The notes below the pieces were generated by a model. The model ran no database searches, had not been told where the DNA came from, and saw only the letters and a program-made list of their open reading frames with translations. Both the position numbers and the translations under genes were made by a program. A stretch of 64,000 bases of DNA from Octopus vulgaris (Eukaryota). Shown piece by piece: positions 11,349 to 60,129 of this stretch (positions are counted from its first letter, which is position 1; each line of letters begins with the position of its first letter). The stretch lies in contig OX597825.1 in NCBI GenBank assembly GCA_951406725.2, positions 42,966,001 through 43,030,000 on the forward strand, read 5' to 3'.

Positions 11349-14300
11349 TTGTTGTTGGCATCCTTTTTGTCTCGGGAGACAATGGAGTTGCGCATAAAGT
11401 AGTCTAGTCCGGCTTTTACATTTCATATCCTGATACATTTCCTGCTGTGGCTGTGTAGTCCTATCCTGGACAAACAGTCCCTCTGGCAGGTACCGCAAAT
11501 GTAGCGAAGACTGTTCCTGGCTGGTTGTAATGCCATAGTTTCTTGTTGACGTATTTTCTTGTCTTTCCATTTCTCCTCTCTCTCTCTGTCACTCCTTTGT
11601 ATTCCCTCTTTTACGGTACGTCGCCAGCCTCCACGGTTGCCGGCAACTGCCTCTCAACCGCTAATATTGATGTTGCAGGCCTTCATGTCCCTTTTGCAAA
11701 CATCCTTGTAACGTAAGAATGGTCTACCCACAGACCTAGTACCCCTAGCAAGCTCTCCGTAGAGTATGTCCTTGGGGATTCTGCCATCTTTCATACGGCT
11801 AACATGCCCAAGCCATCTCATACGTCTTTGTGTGAGGAGTGCAAACATGCTTGGTATTCCTGCTTGCCTGAGGACATCTTTGTTGGGGATATGATTCTGC
11901 CATTTGATGCGGAGGATTATCCGGAGGCAGCGCAGGTGAAAGATGTTTAGGCGACGCTCTTGGCGTGTGTATAGCGTCCAAGTCTCACTTCCATACAGTA
12001 GAGTGCAAAGTACACATGCCTGGTAGATCTTCATTTTCGTGGTCTTGGTCAGCTTATTGTTGTCCCAAGCCCGTTTGGAGAGTTGGGCCATCGCAGCAGC
12101 TGCCTTGCCAATGCATATATTGAGCTCAGCGTCAAGGGATAGGTTGTAGGTGACGGTAGAGCCAATATAGGTAAATTTCTCCACCTCTTGTAATCTGTGG
12201 TCTCCAATATGTATGTTTGGGATGTCCGATGTAGCCTGACCCATGATGTTGGTCTTCTTAAGGCTGATAGCTAAGCCAAAGTCGTTACATGCTTGCTCAA
12301 AACAGTTAATGAGCCTTTGGAGGGCTTCTTCTGTGTGTGATACCAGAGCGGCATCATCAGCAAATAGCATCTCCTTGATCAGGACGTTTCTGATTTTGGT
12401 CTTGGCACGCAGGGGCGAGAGATTGAACAGTTTCCCGTCACTTCTACTGTGCAGAAACACTCCATCATCTGATGTCTGAAAGGCATGTGAGAGTAAGAGC
12501 GAGAAGAAGATGCCAAACAATGTAGGAGCGAGGACCCCTTGCTTTACCCGTTTTTTATTTGGAAGGCGGCTGATGTTGAACCGTTGTGCTCTATGGTGCC
12601 TTGCATGTCCTCATGGAAAGACTTGATGATCCTCAGCAGCTTTGGTGGACATCCGATTTTTTGGAGCAGGAGGAAGAGGCCTGTTCTGCTTACCGAGTCG
12701 AAGGCCTTTGTTAGATCAATGAAGGCCATATATAGTGGCATTTTCTGCTCTCTGGACTTCTCCTGAAATTGGCGTATGGAGAATATCATATCGATAGTTG
12801 ATATGCTTCTTCTAAAGCCACACTGCGATTCCGGATAGATTCGAGAAGTAAGTAGTTGTAGCCTGGCCAGGATAACGCGGGCAAAGGTCTTTCCAACAGT
12901 GCTTAGTTAACAAAGATATTCCACGGTAATTGTTACAATCACCACGGTCACCTTTGCTTTTGTAAAGCGTAATGATGTTAGCATCCCGCATATCCTGAGG
13001 GACTGTACCCTCTTCCCAGCACTGACACAGAAGCTCATGAAGATGCCGAAGCAGGATGGTGTTTTTGCCGGCTTTGATGATCTCTGAGGGGATGCCGTCT
13101 TTTCCCGGAGCCTTGTTTCTTGCTAGGGAGTCAACAGCCTTGGTGAGCTCTGTTATAGATGGCGGACTGTCAAGTTCGCACATGACTGGCAAGATCTTGA
13201 CACTCTCGACTGCATCCTCAGCCACTGTAGTCTCCCGTGAGTAGAGATCCTGGTAGTGCTCCACCCATCTATCCATTTGCTTGCTTTGATCCCTGATGAG
13301 ATCTCCAGTAGTTGATTTCAGAGGGGCTGACTTGGTTGCGGATGGACCGAGGGCCTTCTTCAAACCGGCATACATCCCACGGGTGTCGCCCCTGTCAGCA
13401 GCTGACTGGATACTCTGACAGATTTCCTGCCAATACCTGTTTGCACAGCGTCTGGCTGTCAGTTGGGTTTTATTTCGTGCCTTTCTGAGTTCTTCGAGTG
13501 ACTTTGTAGAAGAGTCCCTCTTGTATTGCATCAGAGCTGCACGCTTTGCTTCGATAACTGGCTCCAGCTCTGAGAGCCCAGCATTGAACCAATCTGGGTT
13601 TTGCCTTTCTCTCATGCCGAAAGTATCTATTGATGTCGTATACAAAGCTTCCCTGATATAGTTCCACCTACTTTCAGCAGAGGAGGTTGGGCAGCTGCTG
13701 AGGGCAACCTTGATAGAAGCAGCAAAACATTTTCGCAGTGTAGGGTCCGAGGTTCTGGCAGTGTTAATGCGTGGTCGGCCCACTTTCTTGGAGTGATGGA
13801 CTTTTTTAGGCAGAATCCTCACCCTACTTCTAATTAGTGAGTGGTCTGTGTCACAATCCGCGCTGTGGTAACTGCGGGTCAATAGAATAGAATTCAGAAA
13901 GGATCTCCGTGTAATGAAGATATCTTGGATGTCTCCAAGATGTCTTGTGGGATGGCTTGTTGGTAAAGAATGTGTTTGTGATGCACAGGTTATGGTATGT
14001 GCAGAATTCGAGTAGTCTCTGACCATTGTCATTCATGTTGCCAATACCAAAGTGTCCAACACAAATGGGCCATTAATCATGGTCAGATCCCACGCGAGCG
14101 TTAAAATCCCCTAGAAGGTAGATATTTTCAGTTGTTGGTATATTTTCTATGACACAGTTGAGATCTTTGTAGAACTGGTCCTTGGTCTCCTCTGAGCTGT
14201 AGAGAGTGGGAGCATAGATGCTGAGTAGATGTACTGAGCCAGAAGAAGTCGAGAGGCGCAGTGAGAGGATACGCTCAGTGCCTCCTGATGGTGGTTCTAT

Positions 14301-15215
14301 TGAGGAGAGTAATGAGTTTCTCACTGCAAAGCCAACGCCATGTTGACGAGGTTCTTCTGGATCGCTTCCCTGCCAAAAGAAGGTGAAATCCTGCTCTTTG
14401 AGTTTGCCGTTTGAGGGAAGTCTTGTCTCCTGTAGCCCACCAATGTCTATGTTGAGCCTCTTTAGTTCACGGTCAATGATGGCCGTTTTCCTTGTGTCTT
14501 CAATCCTGAGTAGATCATCAGATATTCCAGGGCACATGGTCCTGACATTAAAGCTTGCCAACCGCAGGACTGGTGGTTTCTTGACTTTTAGTTGTTTGTC
14601 TGGTGCAGAGGTTGCAGGCCGCTTTTCAAGTCATACTCTTAGCTCCAAGCACCCAATGAAGCAGGCGGCCTGTGGCGGGTCAGTAGCTTATTAACAGGGG
14701 GCTGCCCAGCTTGAGGTAGGCAGTAGCTAACCAATAGGGCACGGAATTACCTCCCACCGTCAGAGGTAACCCGTAGCGCCCATATTTTACGCCAATCTGA
14801 ATGGACTTATCACTCGTGACTGTTACCTCCCGTGTTGTTTCTGCAGCTTTTTACAGCAGCACTGAAGTGTCCTCTCCAGTTTTGCGCAGGCCTGGGCTAG
14901 AGATAAGAAAGTCCTGGGTAGCCCAATCGTCAGGTTTCCTCTCTCGACCTTGCTGATGTAGTCCAAAGGAGTGCAGTGCATTACGTTTGGCACCAGCTTG
15001 GTGGCAGGAGCTGCCGGAAGAGTGTCGAGTCGAACACTAAACCGCCTTCGGGGCTCCACTCCGGATTTCTTTGAAGGTTGTCTCTTTCCGTAACCCTGGA
15101 TAGGGGCCAATACCGGGTACTGTCAGCGGAGCCAGCTGAGCCCGGAACTCGTGTCAGGCAGGGTCGTCACTCCCTGAAGTAGTGAAGAAGATCGCTACCC
15201 ACTACCTTTTCAAGT
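11349..15215 (-). mobile_element. Near full-length RTE-clade LINE with disrupted APE-RT ORF
   Basis: APE motifs (SFNVRT, GLQETR, YAPT, LLGDFNARVG, DTDHSL) and RT motifs (KAPGKDG, YRGISLL, FIDLTKAFDSV, LFADD, LRWLGHV-like); short (CAA)n 3' tail next to (TA)n; GC-richer 5' UTR. Confidence 0.93.
11654..14561 (-). pseudogene. RTE ORF (APE endonuclease + reverse transcriptase) split by stops and frameshifts
   Basis: Collinear ORF pieces 14073-14561, 13851-14036, 12812-14032, 12544-12789 and 11654-12520. Confidence 0.9.
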
Positions 15216-26118: not shown

Positions 26119-27389
26119 CAGTTGTTACTTATAGCTACAATGTAGCTATATATGAGTGAAGTGGAATATGAGTGAAGTAAAGAATATAGATAGAAAAATA
26201 CGCAAGCTGCTGGGTTGTAATAGGATGCACCACCCAAAGGCAGACGTAGATCGCCTTTACCTTCCCAGAGCCCAAGGAGGTCGAGGCCTGATCCAATTTG
26301 AACTAGCTTACAAAACAACCACAATTGGACTGGCCAAATATCTCGAAATATCGAATGACTGGATGCTAAAGCTCGTGGAAAATCACGAGAGACGAAAGAA
26401 GCTTCATTCTATCATAAAGGAAAGCAAAAAAGTTGCTATTGATCTCGTGCAGGATACCCAAACTGAACAGCCCGAGGGAATTACGGCAACTATTGTTGCA
26501 AAGAAGGTGAAAATGATGGCAATGAAAAAAGCGCACGAGCAATTGGCTGATAGGTGGAAGGAGAAACCTCTGCACGGCAAATATGTGACCCGCAGCAAAC
26601 AAGCTGATGTTGACCAGAAGCAAACCCATCAGTGGCTGCGGAGCTCAGGGCTAAAAGCAGAGAGCGAAGGTTTCATCCTGGCTGCTCAAGATCAAAGCCT
26701 ATTAACCCGGAACTACCAGGCCAATGTGATGAAAAATGGAGCAGACCCAAAATGCCGATTCTGCAACGACATGATTGAAACAGTGGACCACCTAATCTCT
26801 GGATGTAAAGTCTTAGCACCAGTGGAGTATAAATTAAGACATGACAGAGTTGGCCAATATCTCCACTGGCTAATAAGTCGGCATTACAATATCAAAACTG
26901 CCGACAAGTGGTATAATCACCACCCTGAGGCTGTAACTGAAGGAGAAAATGTAACCATTCTGTGGGACTTTCCAGTACATACAGACATGAGCATCGCCTG
27001 TGATCATAATATCTCAGCGAAAGAGTTTGACAAGCTCAGAAAATATAAAGACCTACTCATTGAAATTGAGAAAATGTGGCATCTCAAGGCGGTTACAATA
27101 CCAGTGATCGTAGGAGCACTAGGAATGATCAAGAAGGGAACCGAAAATTATATGAGAATGATCCCTGCAAGAAGTGCAAAAGATTGTCTTAACTGGTACA
27201 TCACACGTATTGAGAAGAGCATTGTCGATGTGAGAACTGTTGCTGCTCATGTATTTTAATTTAACTTTAAAAAAAAAAAAAAAATGAACGAACTACTGAG
27301 TTTGGTTTAATGGCCTACCAATGTATACTATGAGTTTCTTTGCCCTACGAGTCGGGAAGACGCTCGGCAAGAAAAAGAAGAAAAAAAAA

Positions 27390-36711: not shown

Positions 36712-37267
36712 GTAGTTTTATTTTTATAGCGTGCTTTCACTTCACTACCGAGCGCAGCTCTGTGTGCCTTGGGTATGTGCTGTGATTTGTTGTGATGCTC
36801 TGATGGTTATTGTATGGAAAGTGTTCTGCGTAGGATGTGTGCAGTGCCTAGTAGTGCAATTTTCTGTATGTTATATGTGTTTGTAAGTCCTGGTGTTTTT
36901 GTTATGTATTTGTCTGAATATTTTTTTATCATGCCTAATGCACCTACTATGATAGGAATTGTTTCTGTTTTCAGGTTCCACATTCTAGTTACCTCTATTT
37001 CCAGGTCTTTGTATTTTGAGAGTTTCTCCATTTCTTTTAGAGACACGTTGTCATCTGCCGGTATTGATACATCAATTAGAAAGCATTTTTTTTCTTCATG
37101 ATCTCTGACAACTATATCTGGTCTGTTGGCCTTAATTTCTCTATCTGTGTGTATCGGCATATCCCAGAGTATGGTTGCTTTCTCGTTTTCTGTGACCTTT
37201 TCTGGTGTGTGCCTATACCATCTTTTTTCTGTTGTTATTCCATAATGTTGGCATAGCTTCCAATGTA

Positions 37268-37268
<1 letters not shown>
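36712..37268 (-). mobile_element. 5'-truncated R4/Dong-like element (RLE domain) in (TTA)n
   Basis: ILWDMPIHTDREIKANRPDIV...FLIDVSIP...KEMEKLSKYKDL: PD-(D/E)xK-type restriction-like endonuclease; flanked by TTA repeats. Confidence 0.88.
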
Positions 37269-37345
<77 letters not shown>

Positions 37346-37458
37346 GACCTTGCTCAGGTCACTGTTTGGAATCGAACTTGGAATCTTGGGGTTAAGAGCG
37401 CGGGCTGCTAACCCCAAGATTCCGAGTTCGATTCCAAGCAGCGACCTGGGCAATAATG

Positions 37459-39786: not shown

Positions 39787-40714
39787 TATACTGGCTTATC
39801 CAATAAATAATTCGGTTTTTTGAATTTTATGGACTAAATTTCGGAGGGGGCTGGAATAAACTATCTGCATCAACTTGCTATAAAAGTAGGTAGTACTGTT
39901 ACTTTTTCACTTATTCTTAGTGCAAATTTTGAAGAGTGGAGTTCGATTTTAACGATTATTGTTTCAAAGCTAATATGGAAGTGACAAAGAAGCATATTCG
40001 GCATATTTTGCTTTATGAGGTCAAGAAAGGCAACAACGGAACGGAAAGTGTGAGGAATATTAATGAAGTATATAGGGATCAGACAATAAGCGTAAGCCAG
40101 TGTCAATGGTGATTCCAGAAATTCCGAGCATGAAATTACAGCCTAGAAGATGAACCTTGCCCTGGAAGATCTGTAGAGCACCAGAAGGACGTTCTGCAAA
40201 CTCTGGTGGGACGAAGTCCCATCGTAGCTGTTGAGGAACTAGCAGAGAAGCTTGGATTTGTTCATGTAACCATTTATCGACGCGAGCGTTAGCAGAAAAA
40301 TGACCATCTTTGGATTCAAGACGAAAGGTGTTCTTCCGTCAGGATAATACTCAGCCATATACAGCGAGGATGACATTCCAAAGGCTAGAGCAGTTTGAAT
40401 GGGAAACGATGCCCCGCCCACTATATTCACCAGACATTCATCGATCTGATTATCATGTATTATGTAGTCTTCAAAATCATTTGGGCCGAAAAAATATGAA
40501 TTCTGTAGACGAGATCAGAACAGTACTGGACGAGTATTTTTCGTTAAGGTCAAGTGAATTTTGGAAGATGGGACTTCCACGTCTACTAGATAGATGGAAG
40601 TGTATTGCAGAAAATGAAGGAGAGTATATTTTAGATTAAAAAGGATTTTGTTTATCTTAACTTTGAAATATAAAACAAGTATAAAAACTGCATTATTTAT
40701 GGAGTGACAGAATA
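39787..40714 (+). mobile_element. Internally deleted mariner element
   Basis: Diverged TIRs; N-terminal HTH MEVTKKHIRHILLYE...SLEDEPCPGR; C-terminal QDN..P, YSPDI..SDYH, W.C...GEY. Confidence 0.88.
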
Positions 40715-42099: not shown

Positions 42100-43788
42100 A
42101 ATGCTTACCACTAAGTTCTTAAGTTCAATTTGAAAATTCTTCTTTTTGTCCTCCAGACTTTTGCCAAGCGCAGCAGATACAGTTGCATCAAAGAGAACGG
42201 GAGCACTAAAGAGATAACCGGAATCATCAACTTGTCCTGCTATTCACCATCATAAACTTATATTCAAGTGGCGTAAGGCTTCTCGCAATTATCAACTACA
42301 ACGACAATTCACTAACAAGTGCGGACCTCTTCAACAACTTTCGTTGGACGTATTCCACCGATTAGCGTAATTCAGCTCGTTATGTTCGGGAAGTCTTCCA
42401 CTTCGGTGGGTTTGGATATTGACAGATATGGCGCCTTATTCCACTCGAAGAGCACCAATGGCCCGACTTGTTGAGGAAGGAAATAATACGGTTCCTGAAC
42501 ACCTTCGGACTTAATAACACCATTGATACCAACCCAACTGTAATGAAGTTCCTGGGCGTGTCGTTAAAACTGCAAAATGATATTTAGAAGTCTTACATGA
42601 AACCAAACGATAGACTTTGTAATATTAATGCAAAATTTTAGTGAAGAACATAAGTAGGAGGTTCTCGAACCTCTTCTCCACTATAAAAACCTTTGACAAA
42701 GTCTTGCCCCTTTACAACAATGAAGGAGAAAAAGGCGCCGAAAGATAATCTGACTTCCCATGCTCTAGATGTAGGCAAAATGTTTTTGTCGTTTATAGAC
42801 AAGCACTTACCTACCCACTATAGTTGTAAGAAACTCCTTAACATACAACATAATATTTGTTCTAGTTCTACTCCCTATATAATTGTATGTATAAACTGCA
42901 ACCAGAGAAACCAACTGTTCTCGCAGAAACAGGGACCTGTGCCCAATGATCCTACAAGACCGAAGCTATCAAATATTACACGTCCGTCAGAGCAACCAAT
43001 GTGGAAAAGACTCTCTACAAAGATATATGAGGGAATTTCAGAAGGAACTTCAAGGCAATGGTGAACAATCGTACCTTCTCCTTTAGGTATCAAAGCAAGC
43101 AAAAGGCAATAAAGCTTTCTAGCAATATATGGGACTTAAACGAGAAAGCTATAAGCAATACAATCAGCAAGAAAATCCTGGCAAGAGATAAATCCTGTAC
43201 AAATGACAGAATCCCGAAGAGCGCAGTGGACATCAATAAATGTCAAAATGCCAAAAGAGAAATCTTTGGTAGCTGCCCGTATGTCATCATGTACATTTTG
43301 AAATTTTACTCTCCTTCTCATCAAGCTCAACAAGGAATGCTACAAACTTCTTATCTTATACAGTCCTATATGATACCTTCTAGTGTATTCGATTTTAAAT
43401 TTCTTCTCTGTTTTTATTTTTATTATCGTTTCATGGTCTTTCTAAATTGTTAACTATTTTTCATGCATTATTATATTATATACTTCTTTATTCTTATATT
43501 TCTTTGTTTTAACATTTATTTTTTTATTATTCTTTTTATCTTATTCCATTATATTTCAATGTATAATTATGACTAAGTGTTTCTTATAAGCCATATATTA
43601 CGACTGAACTTCATCCCCTAACAGCCTTCGCATACCTAGGTATATGCGTGCGCGCCTACGAATCTCTAACTCTCTCTCTCTATTTCTCTTTCTCTCTCTA
43701 TCTATATCTATTTAGCTAGCTATCTAGTTATCTATTTGCATGTGTGCGTCTGTGTGTATGTGTGTGCTGAGTGTGTGTTTGTGTGTGT

Positions 43789-46080: not shown

Positions 46081-47290
<1,210 letters not shown>

Positions 47291-51315: not shown

Positions 51316-51648
51316 AGAGAGAGTAAAGAGTATATATAAGCAACATGTACGGAAATCCATAGTTTATATACCACTATGCGTGTTCATGCGTATATATGTT
51401 CTTTCAAAGTATATAAGACCAAAAATATATGTTCTTTCAAAGTATATAAGGCCAAAAATAAAAAATAAAAATGAAAATAAAATATAAAAATAAGAATACA
51501 AAAATAATAATATAAAATAAAAGGAGAAGAAAGTAAACATTACATGAAAGGGAAATATATTTATACTTGAAGATAAATTTATTTCGATTTATTTCACTTT
51601 CATGCAATCTATTTTATTTACTTTTTGTCTTTATTTTATTATAGATTT

Positions 51649-52040: not shown

Positions 52041-52174
52041 TATTGATTTTATTTTTATTTTTGCTTTTATATACTTTAATTTATATATCTTAATAAGTAT
52101 CCTAGAAGAAGCATATATATGCATGCACATGTATATTGGTGTATAAACTATTGACATTCATACTTGTTGCGCGT

Positions 52175-52225
<51 letters not shown>

Positions 52226-52308
52226 GGTCCCGGGTTGATTCGGGGTTAACCACAGTAAGTAAGGTACTCAATACATAGCAGAGTAAAATTAATTTATTAT
52301 ATAGAAGG

Positions 52309-52359
52309 AGCTTCTACAGGACTAGTACTGTTTCATTCAAGAGAAATCTTCAGGAAGCT
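52309..52359 (-). ncRNA. Type I hammerhead (left arm)
   Basis: Exact reverse complement of 58896-58946. Confidence 0.78.
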
Positions 52360-52539
52360 ATTTAACAAGAATTGTATTAGCATTTATACATTTAGGCAGG
52401 TTTAAAGGAGTGGTGGTGGGGGACTTTTTGGGGGGTAGGCATAGCGCAAAATATCATACTTGGGGGAGTGGTCAAGGAGTCAGTGGTAAGTTAGATGAAA
52501 GAATAGATAAATAAAAAAATAAAAAAATAAAAAATATAA

Positions 52540-52570
<31 letters not shown>

Positions 52571-53186
52571 ATAAAATAAAAAAATAAAAAAATAAAAAAT
52601 ATAAAAAATATATATAAAAAAATATATATATAAAATATATATATACAAAAATATATATATAAAAAGGGGGGGATAGAGTTATAGGTAAATAAGGAGATTC
52701 TCACTTATACCTATACACACATGTATACGTATCTACACACACATACATACATACACATATATATACACACACATATACATATATACATATATATACATAC
52801 ATATACATACCTACACATACACACATACATACATACAAATATACATATACATATATATATATACAATCCAATACAGGCCCATTCCCTAATTTTAATTTTA
52901 TTATCTTCATTTATTACTTTTGTTATCTTTGATCGCTAGGGCTAAGAATCCTGGCAATGGCTGCAGTCCATTTGTCTGTCTACTAGAAGGCAAGTACTCA
53001 TTCCCGCACGCACACTCATTAGCACGTACATTCACCCATTCGTACACTCATACACATACACGTACGCACGCGTTATATTCATACATACAAACATCTACAT
53101 ACGTTCACGTATATACACATACGTACTCGTACCTACAGATTCGTGTCTACACTTTAGGAGGCTAGACTATACATATACACCAATAA

Positions 53187-53218
<32 letters not shown>

Positions 53219-53835
53219 ACACTATACATACACACACACACATATATACTCCTACATACAGATACATACCTATATATATATATATATATATATATACATG
53301 CATACATATATATATATATATATATATACACATACATACACATACACACATACATATACACACACATACATACACATATATATATACATACACAAACATA
53401 TATACACACATATATATATACATACACACATACACACATACATACGTATACATACATACATACATCCATACATCCATACTTACATGCATTTATACGCATA
53501 CACACACCCATCTATATATATGCATATATATATACATATATATATATATACACACTCACACATACATATACAAATCCACGCACACACATACATACATACA
53601 CGTATACGCATACACGCACATACACATATACATGCGTACCCATACACGTGCACACACGCACGCGCATCCATATATATACACACACACACATATATATACA
53701 CGTGTGCAAGCATACATACATACTCATACGCGCACACATACTTACAAATACATATATGCACACACTTACACACATATATATACATACACATATACATGCA
53801 TACATACATATATGCATACATACACACACGCACTC

Positions 53836-53868
<33 letters not shown>

Positions 53869-53941
53869 TACATATATATACATATATATATACATACATA
53901 GATACACATACGCATACATACACATACACATACATACACAC

Positions 53942-53986
<45 letters not shown>

Positions 53987-54195
53987 TACATATATACACA
54001 CATACATACATATACATACACACACATACATATATACATATACACTGATACACATACCCATACTTACACATGCATATACTTATATCACTACATACTCACA
54101 TATATAAACATATATACATATACACACATACATATATACATGTACATACACATACGTATGCATATATATACATATACATATATATACACATATAC

Positions 54196-54234
<39 letters not shown>

Positions 54235-54486
54235 TACACACATATACATGTATACATACGCAAAAATGATACACATATATACACATACACACACACAGAC
54301 AGATGCATATACATACATATATATATATAAACTACATATCTATATAAATACATACATAATACACATATACACACACATATATATACATTCATGCATATAC
54401 ATATACAAGTATACACATACATACATACACACATACATACATATACACACACACATATATACACATACATACATACATACACACAT

Positions 54487-54529
<43 letters not shown>

Positions 54530-54908
54530 CACGTACACATATACATATGTATATATATATCAACAAGGGAGGGTAAAGTTAATTAGTTATTAATCAATTT
54601 CATCAAGTGTTCAGTATGTAAAGGGACCATTATTATTTTGAGTAAACAATGTTAGAGGGAAAAAATTCTCTAAGTAGTGGAAGAGGCTAAAAAACTTTAT
54701 TGGCTGCTATTTCTAGAAAGTTTAGTATGTGGCAAAGTAATTTATTTTATTTTCTAATCCCTAATTATATAATATTTTATACATACATACACATACATAA
54801 GCACATACATTTACACATACATATGCATATACATATATACACATATACATACAAACACATATACACATATACACACACACACACATACAAGCACATACAT
54901 ATATATAT

Positions 54909-54951
<43 letters not shown>

Positions 54952-55212
54952 AATATATATACATATATATTTTTACATGCATACATACACACACACACAC
55001 ATAATACATGCGTATATTCCTACTGTACCCATGCATTTCTATACAAATATACATACATACATACGATACACATATACAAGCGTGCACATATAATATGTGA
55101 AAGGTCTTAGGAGAAAAGGTAATCGGGGGTGCTAGGGGAACAGTGGGGTTGGGGGGGGGGGGTAGGGGGGGTTGTGTGGGGGGGGGGGGTTGTAGGGGGC
55201 GGTTGGTTGTCA

Positions 55213-55604
55213 TCAATCAGGTTGCCGGGTAGGTCTATAGTTCTTGTAGTTCGCATACTTCTTATGCATACAATTTGGGGAGTGTTCTGAAAATTTGTTA
55301 AGGAGAGGGCCTTTGGCGAACAAGATCTCTAGGCTCTCTGACATGCATAGGTCACAGCAGGTATGTCCTCCTGTGTACGAGCGCGCCTTCTGTAGTAGTT
55401 TCCACTTGGTCTTGAAGGGGATTGAGTTCCTTTTAAGGTACCAGATGTGGGCGGCGAGGGTAGTTTGGTTGGATTTATCCTGTCGCCGGAACGAGTGTGT
55501 ATGTGCATACCAGCGGGTCTTAAAGCTGTTTGACGTCATTCCAATGTAGGATTTACTTTTATCGTCAAGGCCTGATCTTACCTCGCATTTATATACTAGG
55601 TCCC
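55213..55604 (-). pseudogene. PLE GIY-YIG endonuclease C-terminal fragment (left arm)
   Basis: Mirror of 55619-56010 with one amino-acid difference (CMSES vs CISES). Confidence 0.85.
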
Positions 55605-55605
55605 A

Positions 55606-56010
55606 AACTGCCTACAGAGGGACCTAGTATATAAATGCGAGGTAAGATCAGGCCTTGACGATAAAAGTAAATCCTACATTGGAATGACGTCAAACAGCTT
55701 TAAGACCCGCTGGTATGCACATACACACTCGTTCCGGCGACAGGATAAATCCAACCAAACTACCCTCGCCGCCCACATCTGGTACCTTAAAAGGAACTCA
55801 ATCCCCTTCAAGACCAAGTGGAAACTACTACAGAAGGCGCGCTCGTACACAGGAGGACATACCTGCTGTGACCTATGCATATCAGAGAGCCTAGAGATCT
55901 TGTTCGCCAAAGGCCCTCTCCTTAACAAATTTTCAGAACACTCCCCAAATTGTATGCATAAGAAGTATGCGAACTACAAGAACTATAGACCTACCCGGCA
56001 ACCTGATTGA
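55606..56010 (+). pseudogene. PLE GIY-YIG endonuclease domain, 5'-truncated, no RT
   Basis: NCLQRDLVYKCEV...KSYIGMTSNSFKTRWYAH..SFR...TTLAAHIW.LK...W...CDLCISE...LLN...CMH: VY/YIG motif, catalytic R and E, PLE-type Cys/His residues. Confidence 0.88.
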
Positions 56011-56284
56011 TGACAACCAACCCCCCCTACAACTCCCCCCCAACCCCCCCCCCTACAACCCCCCCCCCTACAAACCCCCCCCCCAACCCCACTTGTCCCC
56101 TAGCACCCCCGATTACCTTTTCTCCTAAGACCTTTCACATATTATATGTGCACGCTTGTATATGTGTATCGTATGTATGTATGTATATTTGTATAGAAAT
56201 GCATGGGTACAGTAGGAATATACGCATGTATTATGTGTGTGTGTGTGTATGTATGCATGTAAAAAAATATATATGTATATATAT

Positions 56285-56329
<45 letters not shown>

Positions 56330-56709
56330 ATATATATATGTATGTGCTTGTATGTGTGTGTGTGTGTATATGTGTATATGTGTTTGTATGTATATGTGTA
56401 TATATGTATATGCATATGTATGTGTAAATGTATGTGCTTATGTATGTGTATGTATGTATAAAATATTATATAATTAGGGATTAGGAAAATAAAATAAATT
56501 ACTTTGCCACATACTAAACTTTCTAGAAATAGCAGCCAATAAAGTTTTTTAGCCTCTTCCACTACTTAGAGAATTTTTTCCCTCTAACATTGTTTACTCA
56601 AAATAATAATGGTCCCTTTACATACTGAACACTTGATGAAATTGATTAATAACTAATTAACTTTACCCTCCCTTGTTGATATATATATACATATGTATAT
56701 GTGTACGTG

Positions 56710-56758
<49 letters not shown>

Positions 56759-57014
56759 ATGTGTGTATGTATGTATGTATTTGTATATATGTGTGTGTGT
56801 ATATGTATGTGTGCGCGTGTGTGTGTATGTATGTGTATACTTGTATATGTATATGCATGAATGTATATATATGTGTGTGTATATGTGTATTATGTATGTA
56901 TTTATATAGATATGTAGTTTATATATATATATGTATGTATATGCATCTGTCTGTGTGTGTGTATGTGTATATATGTGTATCATTTTTGCGTATGTATACA
57001 TGTATATGTGTGTA

Positions 57015-57053
<39 letters not shown>

Positions 57054-57385
57054 GTATATGTGTATATATATGTATATGTATATATATGCATACGTATGTG
57101 TATGTACATGTATATATGTATGTGTGTATATGTATATATGTTTATATATGTGAGTATGTAGTGATATAAGTATATGCATGTGTAAGTATGGGTATGTGTA
57201 TCAGTGTATATGTATATATGTATGTGTGTGTGTATGTATATGTATGTATGTGTGTATATATGTATGTGTATATGTGTTATATATATATATATATATATAT
57301 ATGTGTATATATGTGTGTATGTATGTGTATGTGTATGTATGCGTATGTGTATCTATGTATGTATATATATATGTATATATATGTA

Positions 57386-57418
<33 letters not shown>

Positions 57419-57917
57419 GAGTGCGTGTGTGTATGTATGCATATATGTATGTATGCATGTATATGTGTATGTATATATATGTGTGTAAGTGTGTGCATAT
57501 ATGTATTTGTAAGTATGTGTGCGCGTATGAGTATGTATGTATGCTTGCACACGTGTATATATATGTGTGTGTGTGTATATATATGGATGCGCGTGCGTGT
57601 GTGCACGTGTATGGGTACGCATGTATATGTGTATGTGCGTGTATGCGTATACGTGTATGTATGTATGTGTGTGCGTGGATTTGTATATGTATGTGTGAGT
57701 GTGTATATATATATATATGTATATATATATGCATATATATAGATGGGTGTGTGTATGCGTATAAATGCATGTAAGTATGGATGTATGGATGTATGTATGT
57801 ATGTATACGTATGTATGTGTGTATGTGTGTATGTATATATATATGTGTGTATATATGTTTGTGTATGTATATATATGTGTATGTATGTGTGTGTATATGT
57901 ATGTGTGTATGTGTATG

Positions 57918-57948
<31 letters not shown>

Positions 57949-58023
57949 GTATGCATGTATATATATATATATATATATATAGGTATGTATCTGTATGTAG
58001 GAGTATATATGTGTGTGTGTGTA

Positions 58024-58066
<43 letters not shown>

Positions 58067-58895
58067 TTATTGGTGTATATGTATAGTCTAGCCTCCTAAA
58101 GTGTAGACACGAATCTGTAGGTACGAGTACGTATGTGTATATACGTGAACGTATGTAGATGTTTGTATGTATGAATATAACGCGTGCGTACGTGTATGTG
58201 TATGAGTGTACGAATGGGTGAATGTACGTGCTAATGAGTGTGCGTGCGGGAATGAGTACTTGCCTTCTAGTAGACAGACAAATGGACTGCAGCCATTGCC
58301 AGGATTCTTAGCCCTAGCGATCAAAGATAACAAAAGTAATAAATGAAGATAATAAAATTAAAATTAGGGAATGGGCCTGTATTGGATTGTATATATATAT
58401 ATGTATATGTATATTTGTATGTATGTATGTGTGTATGTGTAGGTATGTATATGTATGTATATATATATGTATATATGTATATGTGTGTGTATATATATGT
58501 GTATGTATGTATGTGTGTGTAGATACGTATACATGTGTGTATAGGTATAAGTGAGAATCTCCTTATTTACCTATAACTCTATCCCCCTTTTTTTATATAT
58601 ATATTTTTGTATATATATATTTTATATATATATTTTTTATATATATTTTTTATATTTTTTATTTTTTTATTTTTTTATTTTATTTTATTTTTTTATTTTT
58701 TTATTTTTTATTTTTTATATTTTTTTATTTTTTTATTTTTTTATTTATCTATTCTTTCATCTAACTTACCACTGACTCCTTGACCACTCCCCCAAGTATG
58801 ATATTTTGCGCTATGCCTACCCCCCAAAAAGTCCCCCACCACCACTCCTTTAAACCTGCCTAAATGTATAAATGCTAATACAATTCTTGTTAAAT

Positions 58896-58946
58896 AGCTT
58901 CCTGAAGATTTCTCTTGAATGAAACAGTACTAGTCCTGTAGAAGCT
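58896..58946 (+). ncRNA. Type I hammerhead (right arm)
   Basis: AGCTTC-CTGAAGA-TTTC TCTT GAAT-GAAA-CAG TACTAGTC CTG-TA-GAAGCT: perfect 6-bp stem I, 4-bp stem III, U-U at 10.1/11.1; predicted cleavage after A58940. Confidence 0.78.
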
Positions 58947-58957
58947 CCTTCTATATA

Positions 58958-58993
<36 letters not shown>

Positions 58994-60129
58994 GCGCAAC
59001 AAGTATGAATGTCAATAGTTTATACACCAATATACATATATATTTATATATAGTACAAAGTAAGATAGGAGTTATGGAGGTAAACCACTATGGGATATCA
59101 GTTATCCAATATACTGCTGGTGAAGCACCCAAATGCCAAATACATAAATGCTTATAATTGCAATGCAATTAATTCATTTATTGTATCGGATGGGCGAAGG
59201 TAAAATATTTTGCCATAAATTCATAATACAAATAAGAAAATGGAGGTACAAATTCATTTCAATCATCAACTTACAGATATTACCATTTCATATTATTTAT
59301 TAACTATATAAATAGGAACATCCAAATCGAACAAAACAATATGCATCAATATGCAAATTAATAATACCATAAGAATAATAGACACACACACATAGCCCAA
59401 TGTCATAATTCAAAACTATCGCAGCGAAAATTTTGAAAAGTTCCCCCAGTTCTGAAAAACTCGATAAATTCGACATGGGGTCGACAATCTAAGCTTATCA
59501 TATGCAACACATTTTCCGTTGTAGTTTTCGCAACTTGCATTCGATTTTCACCAAACTCATGGTGAAGCTTAATGTTATCCTAAGGAACTTAATTCTTACG
59601 TTAGTTTTCCATGCAATACCTTACCATCAGAAAAAATCGATAAAATCATTCCATTTTGGGAAATCGCCTTCAAATTCAAGATGACATGTTTTCGACAATA
59701 TCTTTAACAAATTGGCAGGAATTTTTTTTGAAATTCACAGCGATCATCCTGTCTGCTCCAAGGAGCTATATGGCTCTTTTGATTCCAATAGGATACGTTA
59801 TTACTGGAAAAAATCTGTCAATTACATCATATGTGGCACATATAGCAAACCGATTTTTCTGCGATATTTTTTGAAAGTTCACATAGATTTTCTCTACACC
59901 GATGTTGGACATCAAGTTTGCATTGAATGTCAAACTAACGACCTTTTGTCAATGCAGTTAACAAGTATTGGGAGAAATCGACAAAATCATATAACTTTGA
60001 GGCCGACCATGCGAACCCTACAAAACTGACTTTTGTTAAATAGTTGTCGGATTTCAGGCGATTTAGTCGATTTTTGCCGCTTTTGTCATAAAGGTTACTA
60101 GAAATGGCATACGTTTACCTTTTATCTTC

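Follow-up and report, generated by a model that had tools for sequence, protein, structure and literature searches.

A recent head-to-head insertion of a putative Hydra-clade Penelope-like element in Octopus vulgaris, likely reverse-transcribed from both cut target strands

A large palindrome lies within a stretch of 64,000 nucleotides (nt) of the Octopus vulgaris genome (assembly GCA_951406725.2, contig OX597825.1, positions 42,966,001 to 43,030,000 of the forward strand). This whole stretch is referred to below as the window, and coordinates are those of the window. To judge by its sequence, the palindrome is a head-to-head, 5'-truncated insertion of a young Hydra-clade Penelope-like element (PLE) in a (TA)n tract. 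The insertion is recent, and it is likely to have been reverse-transcribed from both of the cut target strands. The palindrome and its immediate surroundings are composed as follows.

52129–52176, plus strand: native left-flank DNA, the end of an older dispersed repeat whose paralogs cross 52129 and finish in (TA)n; the reversed 48-nt copy derives from it
52181–52221, no strand: left part of the (TA)n target, read from the sequence; (TA)n is found at the ends of nearly all family loci examined
52222–52291, minus strand: 70-nt tail, the element's 5' leader, which follows the pseudo-long terminal repeat (pLTR) in tandem copies; it ends in a small AC-rich stem-loop
52292–55604, minus strand: left arm, a 5'-truncated element with an endonuclease (EN) fragment, a microsatellite-rich 3' untranslated region (UTR) and the pLTR
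52309–52359, minus strand: left hammerhead ribozyme motif, with the layout of the Hydra hammerhead table of PMC8557442
55605–55618, plus strand: spacer, one untemplated A and 13 nt of native sense sequence of the right arm, with a native 3-bp stem and 4-nt loop
55606–56010, plus strand: GIY-YIG EN fragment, open until its stop codon, without a start and without a reverse transcriptase (RT)
55619–58963, plus strand: right arm, with the same content as the left, finishing at the family's usual tail-less end
58867–58873, plus strand: TATA-like motif 29 nt upstream of hammerhead stem I, a possible pLTR promoter
58896–58946, plus strand: right hammerhead ribozyme motif, with a predicted cut after 58940
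58964–58989, no strand: (TA)n separating the element end from the reversed flank copy, read from the sequence
58990–59037, minus strand: 48-nt reversed left-flank copy (templated insertion), beginning after a 4-nt skip
59038–59385, plus strand: what is left of the (TA)-like target, followed by another dispersed repeat, whose paralogs begin at (TA)n

Self-BLAST of the window returns one long inverted match over 52292–58963, with 98.1% identity across 6,718 columns, and the alignment of the two arms, which are about 98% alike on either side of the 14-nt spacer, agrees with it. The palindrome is thus present in the assembly as an initial annotation, made from the sequence alone, had described it, with the left arm running from 52292. 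The same annotation gave each arm some 2.5 kb of complex microsatellite, a figure to be lowered, as tandem-repeat tracts occupy only about 2 kb per arm. There are 15 substitutions and 18 indels between the arms. All the substitutions except that at 55342/55881, and likewise the indels, lie in or adjoin poly-C, homopolymer or microsatellite tracts. Among 1,233 non-repetitive columns, 1 difference is counted. The ends of the palindrome are unequal: the left carries the 70-nt tail, and the right has no tail. Past the (TA)n runs, the 48 nt of flank at 52129–52176 are mirrored at 58990–59037. The hammerheads proposed near each outer end were recovered as motifs, at 52309–52359 and 58896–58946, and the spacer reads as it had been quoted, 13 of its 14 nt lying in frame with the right-arm GIY-YIG fragment (NCLQRDLVY). 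Since it has neither a start nor an RT, the window copy is incapable of autonomous movement and, as a transposon, inert.

The palindromic layout is ordinary for its family and of a known kind. Inverted, 5'-truncated copies of PLEs have been described (PMC8557442), as have copies with a tail at only one end (PMC3846280). In pattern counts over the 2.8-Gb assembly, a 29-nt piece of the hammerhead end has 2,057 exact matches, against 0 for the control. The EN fragment yields 475 candidate matches, the 40 that were scored having approximately 100% identity. Among the first 100 listed matches, all on contig C1, 33 of 62 loci hold an outward-facing pair of hammerhead ends, and this is a lower bound, since some apparently single loci proved to be pairs with one changed end. 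The 34 sampled pairs span 67 to 10,329 bp, three of them being longer than the window palindrome, and 7 of 8 further selected pairs, or loci resembling them, span 5.7–7.9 kb. The arms are therefore long, at 3.3 kb, as had been claimed, but not unusually so. The subfamily marker of the window copy occurs at 22 other places (24 in all), and the nearest copy at another locus differs from it at 1 of 1,233 columns, from which it follows that the insertion is very recent. The earlier description of a recent, 5'-truncated, inverted PLE insertion with hammerheads in its pLTRs thus holds good. At the lower end of the size range, some 490 loci genome-wide (for example L049 and L112–L155) are mini-palindromes, two back-to-back hammerheads folded at the start of stem I, many of them loop-free; the figure counts matches to the pattern for this smallest class. 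Family copies are also found nested in the (TA)n tracts of fellow copies (L033 3990–4300, L037–L038 and L061–L062).

Two regularities across the family, the single tail of each pair and the occurrence of the spacer on either arm, favour priming from both cut strands. Exactly one tail is present in 36 of 36 pairs, a set in which one row is nested and less sure and from which C13, also one-tailed, was left out. The same holds for 8 of 8 further long pairs (11 taken, 3 without an end in the stretch fetched) and for 45 of 46 scored mini-palindromes (50 taken, 4 unscored; 10 common to the 36-pair set). Just one scored pair has two tails and none has zero, making it unlikely that tails were lost later by deletion. 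Of 45 mini-palindromes, 16 have the tail-less arm as the longer, spacer-bearing one and 10 the tailed arm, whilst in 19 neither arm is longer. For 28 long loci, at which junctions within microsatellite are imprecise, the corresponding counts are 12 tail-less, 9 tailed, 3 equal and 4 mixed or unscored. In the window, the spacer belongs to the tail-less right arm. Loop-free centres, found in 19 mini-palindromes and in L164, fall on self-complementary 4–6-mers, which suits the annealing of two ends.

The initial annotation had offered a different origin, in which one truncated cDNA snapped back on a CCC/GGG micro-inverted repeat and self-primed a full mirror copy. A self-primed fold-back leaves its loop on the template arm; the right arm would therefore be the template and the left arm the copy. 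The left arm, however, has 70 nt that are absent from the right, and a single-cDNA snap-back fails on this point, the mirror arm having content of its own (the tail) just as the right arm has the spacer. Neither is there a native micro-inverted repeat to close the loop. Whether CCC natively precedes AAACTGC had been proposed as a check; in 30 of 30 other copies read the bases at this place are not CCC and the native sequence differs. CCC is simply where the left arm stops; one untemplated A comes next, and then 13 nt of native right-arm sense sequence.

By contrast, the idea that both arms come from one template lineage has survived. Over 18 pairs, the two arms share 27 minor alleles that occur elsewhere and 11 that are confined to the locus, whilst a further 15 are found in one arm alone and 4, at polymorphic sites, disagree between the arms. 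This sharing of alleles implies that the arms derive from a single lineage. Two different source copies, a possibility raised by the G/A difference at 55342/55881, were rejected, as G is found in 0 of 42 other matches.

The 48 nt mirrored at the right end can be traced to the left flank. A 29-nt pattern taken from them occurs at just two places, the left flank and the right end. The left-flank paralogs extend without a break through 52129 up to a terminal (TA)n, whilst the right-flank paralogs begin at (TA)n just past 59037; the 48 nt are therefore native on the left and have been reverse-copied into the right-hand (TA)n. The pattern search and the flank paralogs together exclude the alternatives that these nucleotides are part of the element or native right flank. 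A strict test for a mirrored flank copy found none at 77 other loci, and we take the copy to be the outcome of a single, isolated switch of template from one self-complementary (TA)n end to the other. In a different geometry, one arm of L128 (G000:C1:41549800-41550840) is shortened, and in place of the lost part stands a 20-nt stretch of the flank next to it, copied in reverse across a (TA)n run.

Starting from what is observed, namely the family, the anatomy, the one-sided tail, the ownership of the spacer, the absence of a native CCC and the derivation of the 48 nt from the left, the insertion may be envisaged as follows. The endonuclease would cut both strands within (TA)n. Synthesis primed by one 3' end would then begin at the distal RT start site and produce the tailed left arm; primed by the other, it would begin 70 nt further in and produce the tail-less right arm. 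The two cDNAs, templated by one RNA or by identical RNAs, would terminate no more than 13 nt apart, which is what an end of the template at that place would lead one to expect. The two 3' ends would be joined via the untemplated A, each being filled in on the other. Finally, during the sealing of the right end, a 3' end in (TA)n may have switched to the self-complementary left (TA)n, reverse-copied 48 nt of the left flank and then gone back to the right target. A Poseidon PLE protein has been reported to cut and extend both target strands in vitro, and to start at two RNA sites which bound the tail, in an AC-rich stem-loop (PMC11167929); the tail in the window likewise ends in a small AC-rich stem-loop.

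A number of observations weigh against priming from both strands. The 11 shared locus-only alleles fit self-copying, or later arm-to-arm conversion, equally well. Matched 5' ends (within 40 nt in 10 of 26 long loci, which are not a random set) are directly predicted by snap-back, and the window spacer contains a native 3-bp stem. Recombination between the arms could flip spacers at a later stage. In PMC11167929 the two strands did not differ in their start sites. Given 5' resection, moreover, the reversed flank copy would arise most easily with the right arm still unattached to the right flank, which strains the second step of the scheme at this locus. Lastly, no listed contig of four public runs crosses either junction, although both stretches are swamped by dispersed repeats, so that this is uninformative either way.

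Some of these points are met by a hybrid form of snap-back, a rather unlikely but serious competitor. Here a long cDNA primed at the right, tail-less site would fold near its 3' end and copy itself, whilst a short second cDNA primed at the left would supply the tail, to which the copy would anneal. The 13-nt spacer, the matched arm ends and the shared alleles would all be explained, and the native 3-bp stem in the spacer could help. Precedents are to hand in R2 snap-back junctions on cDNA or nearby target DNA (PMC11371274) and in the self-priming that has been proposed for PLE palindromes (PMC3846280). The hybrid scheme nevertheless still requires two priming events, the junction shows no in-register pairing and includes one untemplated base, and the loop-free centres of 19 of 45 mini-palindromes are hard to obtain from an intramolecular hairpin.

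It is improbable that a single self-primed fold-back set out from the left, tailed end, ran into the left flank whilst skipping the tail, and had its spacer flipped later by recombination between the arms. This alternative retains some weight because a fold-back overrunning its primer would place the left flank, reversed, at the right end, where it is indeed observed, and arms of 3.3 kb could recombine. Such a flip would be needed, however, not only here but in about half of the family, including mini-palindromes with 50-bp arms; none of 77 other loci shows an overrun, and CCC is not native. About as improbable is an assembly or read artefact, either a fold-back chimera or mis-polishing which dragged left-flank bases to the right end: the missing junction contigs, a consensus noisy enough to give homopolymer-type frameshifts in most full-length kin and a 48-nt copy unique among the loci sampled would all allow it, but in a chimera the tail would be mirrored as well, the right arm finishes where tail-less ends of this family normally do, the outer flanks are two different repeats, the arms differ at one non-repetitive site, the layout recurs at hundreds of loci, and a coverage hole proves nothing where contig alignments are swamped by repeats. 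The argument against an artefact is drawn from the assembly itself; support from reads would be most valuable for the 48-nt copy.

Priming from both cut strands might also be generalised beyond the window. It is quite possible, albeit a little short of probable, that two-ended target-primed reverse transcription (TPRT) is the default for Hydra-clade PLEs, with one start site per cut strand, two cDNAs from one RNA and a joining of their 3' ends, so that the one-tailed palindrome would be the normal product. The mini-palindromes would then mark the 5' end of the RNA at stem I, both cDNAs having run off it; a TATA-like motif stands 29 nt above the fold point. Read-through transcription of the palindrome, according to the initial annotation, would give ~3.3 kb of double-stranded RNA, which is at present a conjecture; a sense promoter in the pLTR would point outward from both ends of the palindrome. 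The window locus, for its part, may record the sealing of the second end, or else both of its arms may have been primed from copies of the left target end.

The family assignment draws upon the hammerheads and the coding remnant, and upon longer kin elsewhere in the genome. A scan of the window for a hammerhead core plus stems finds the two end motifs and one weak third match. Stems I–III form in RNAfold, with a stability not above that of shuffled sequences (z −0.17), and Rfam at its gathering threshold gives no match anywhere in the window, the hammerheads included. Their layout fits the Hydra table in the supplement of PMC8557442 at the level of the motif. Pfam detects no RT or GIY-YIG domain, returning a single weak unrelated match, and the calls of both domains rest on motifs read by eye. 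A homolog search made with the EN half against longer proteins recovered none among 258 candidates.

Full-length kin (L031, L033 and L037) encode an RT followed by a C-terminal GIY-YIG domain. In most copies a homopolymer interrupts the reading frame, which is unbroken in L035. In L031, L033, L034 and L037 the break between RT and EN falls at a C run through which L035 reads; a homopolymer error in the assembly is likely, the alternative being a real frameshift. The open reading frames of the kin carry RIRWRSFF, an RWK motif near the N terminus with K changed to R, and SDKTKN, in which DKG has become DKT. Their CxCX5C linker before the EN is CNCHDKTTC, and it has been truncated away in the window copy. 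The EN fragment in the window reads CDLC..E..N..CMH, that is, CxxC and CxH flanking the conserved E and N. By eye, no cysteines were seen between the VY and YIG parts of the EN core, which may bear on whether the CCHH motif is absent here, as would be expected of a Hydra-clade element. RWK-type, DKT, CxCX5C, CxxC and CxH motifs are the diagnostics given for the Hydra clade (PMC8557442, section 11), and a canonical hammerhead motif in the pLTR and insertion in (TA)n are both present, as for that clade. In tandem kin the unit is about 5.2 kb in length, in the order tail, RT, GIY-YIG, long microsatellite-rich 3' UTR and hammerhead. Hydra-clade elements are generally shorter than 3 kb, which is given as a tendency (PMC8557442); the tandem spacing of ~5.2 kb departs from it, the excess being the microsatellite of the 3' UTR. 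Naiad, the first guess at the family, was rejected on domain order: Naiad/Chlamys PLEs have an N-terminal EN and no canonical hammerhead, whereas here the EN is C-terminal and a hammerhead motif is present. A decayed remnant of a related PLE lies at 42687–43450, where a piece of reading frame matches the EN fragment with 31% identity over 58 amino acids.

The neighbourhood is itself rich in repeats. The left-flank repeat has an inverted partner of 72% identity (51340–51470 and 52047–52170), and the landing site of the new element is therefore the end of an older insertion that is palindromic and finishes in (TA)n; the stretch between the partners is presumably a tRNA-like short interspersed nuclear element. 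The right-flank repeat (59050–59385; also L087, L094 and L099) has 2,446 candidates and starts at (TA)n in 19 of 19 paralogs read. It is often adjoined by an inverted partial copy, and may represent another PLE-type or non-autonomous family. An older inverted repeat with arms of about 300 bp, a (TA)n-rich centre and 82% identity overall occupies 46122–47062. The broken reading frames at 11657–14630 (minus), 26156–27256 (plus), 36810–37358 (minus) and 40304–40636 (plus) we take to be LINE-like (long interspersed nuclear element; RTE/CR1-type and R4/Dong-type) and mariner-like.

As one of hundreds, the single locus is of little weight; its value lies in the family-level rules and in the small scar in its flank. 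A very young, high-copy family provides countable rules for models of integration: one tail per pair, a spacer on either arm, one template lineage and a fixed fold point at stem I. Should the two-ended reading be true, PLE integration would be basically unlike TPRT of the LINE type. Hundreds of young palindromes, if transcribed through, could feed adenosine-to-inosine editing or small-RNA pathways. A literature search, with subscription journals and the supplementary figures of PMC8557442 and PMC11167929 outside its scope, found no paper on this Hydra-clade family or on a two-ended model for PLE palindromes, and according to the excerpts of the same two papers the origin of inverted PLE insertions and of one-sided tails is still open.

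The octopus element has much in common with the Hydra PLEs listed in the excerpts of PMC8557442, sharing an RT followed by a C-terminal GIY-YIG, the diagnostic motifs, a hammerhead in the pLTR and the (TA)n target; an inverted, 5'-truncated copy is noted there too, for Penelope-13_HM. It differs in its unit of ~5.2 kb with a 2.9-kb microsatellite-rich 3' UTR, the listed Hydras being mostly under 3 kb, and in its tail of 70 nt as against 30–40. Its hammerhead sequence is unlike that of Hydra-1_Obim, and it therefore belongs to another family than the listed octopus Hydra.

Insertions of EN-bearing PLEs such as Adineta Pen2a, as excerpted from PMC3846280 and the legend to Fig. 2 of PMC8557442, share with the octopus palindrome the head-to-head layout, the palindromic junction and the one-ended tail. 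In the octopus the inverted part reaches 3.3 kb and half of the sampled loci are paired; no target-site duplication is readable in the (TA)n. The counts across the octopus family argue against the self-priming reading given in PMC3846280. In vitro TPRT by the Poseidon element PAc (PMC11167929) is alike in its two RT starts bounding the tail and in having an AC-rich stem-loop at the start; there both target strands are cut and extended, and a dimer is predicted. PAc, however, belongs to another clade, and the excerpts of PMC11167929 neither account for inverted insertions nor describe a rule of one start site per end.

Parallels can also be drawn outside the PLEs. Inverted duplications and templated insertions have been reported for L1 (PMC11702581). 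At the snap-back junctions of R2 (PMC11371274) and the inverted or templated junction insertions of L1 (PMC11702581), as described in the excerpts, additional DNA is synthesised from a 3' end, on cDNA or on target DNA close by, before sealing, and inverted RT products are joined. In both R2 and L1 the extra DNA lies at the 5' junction of a single copy, whereas the 48-nt copy in the octopus lies at the outer 3' end of a second arm.

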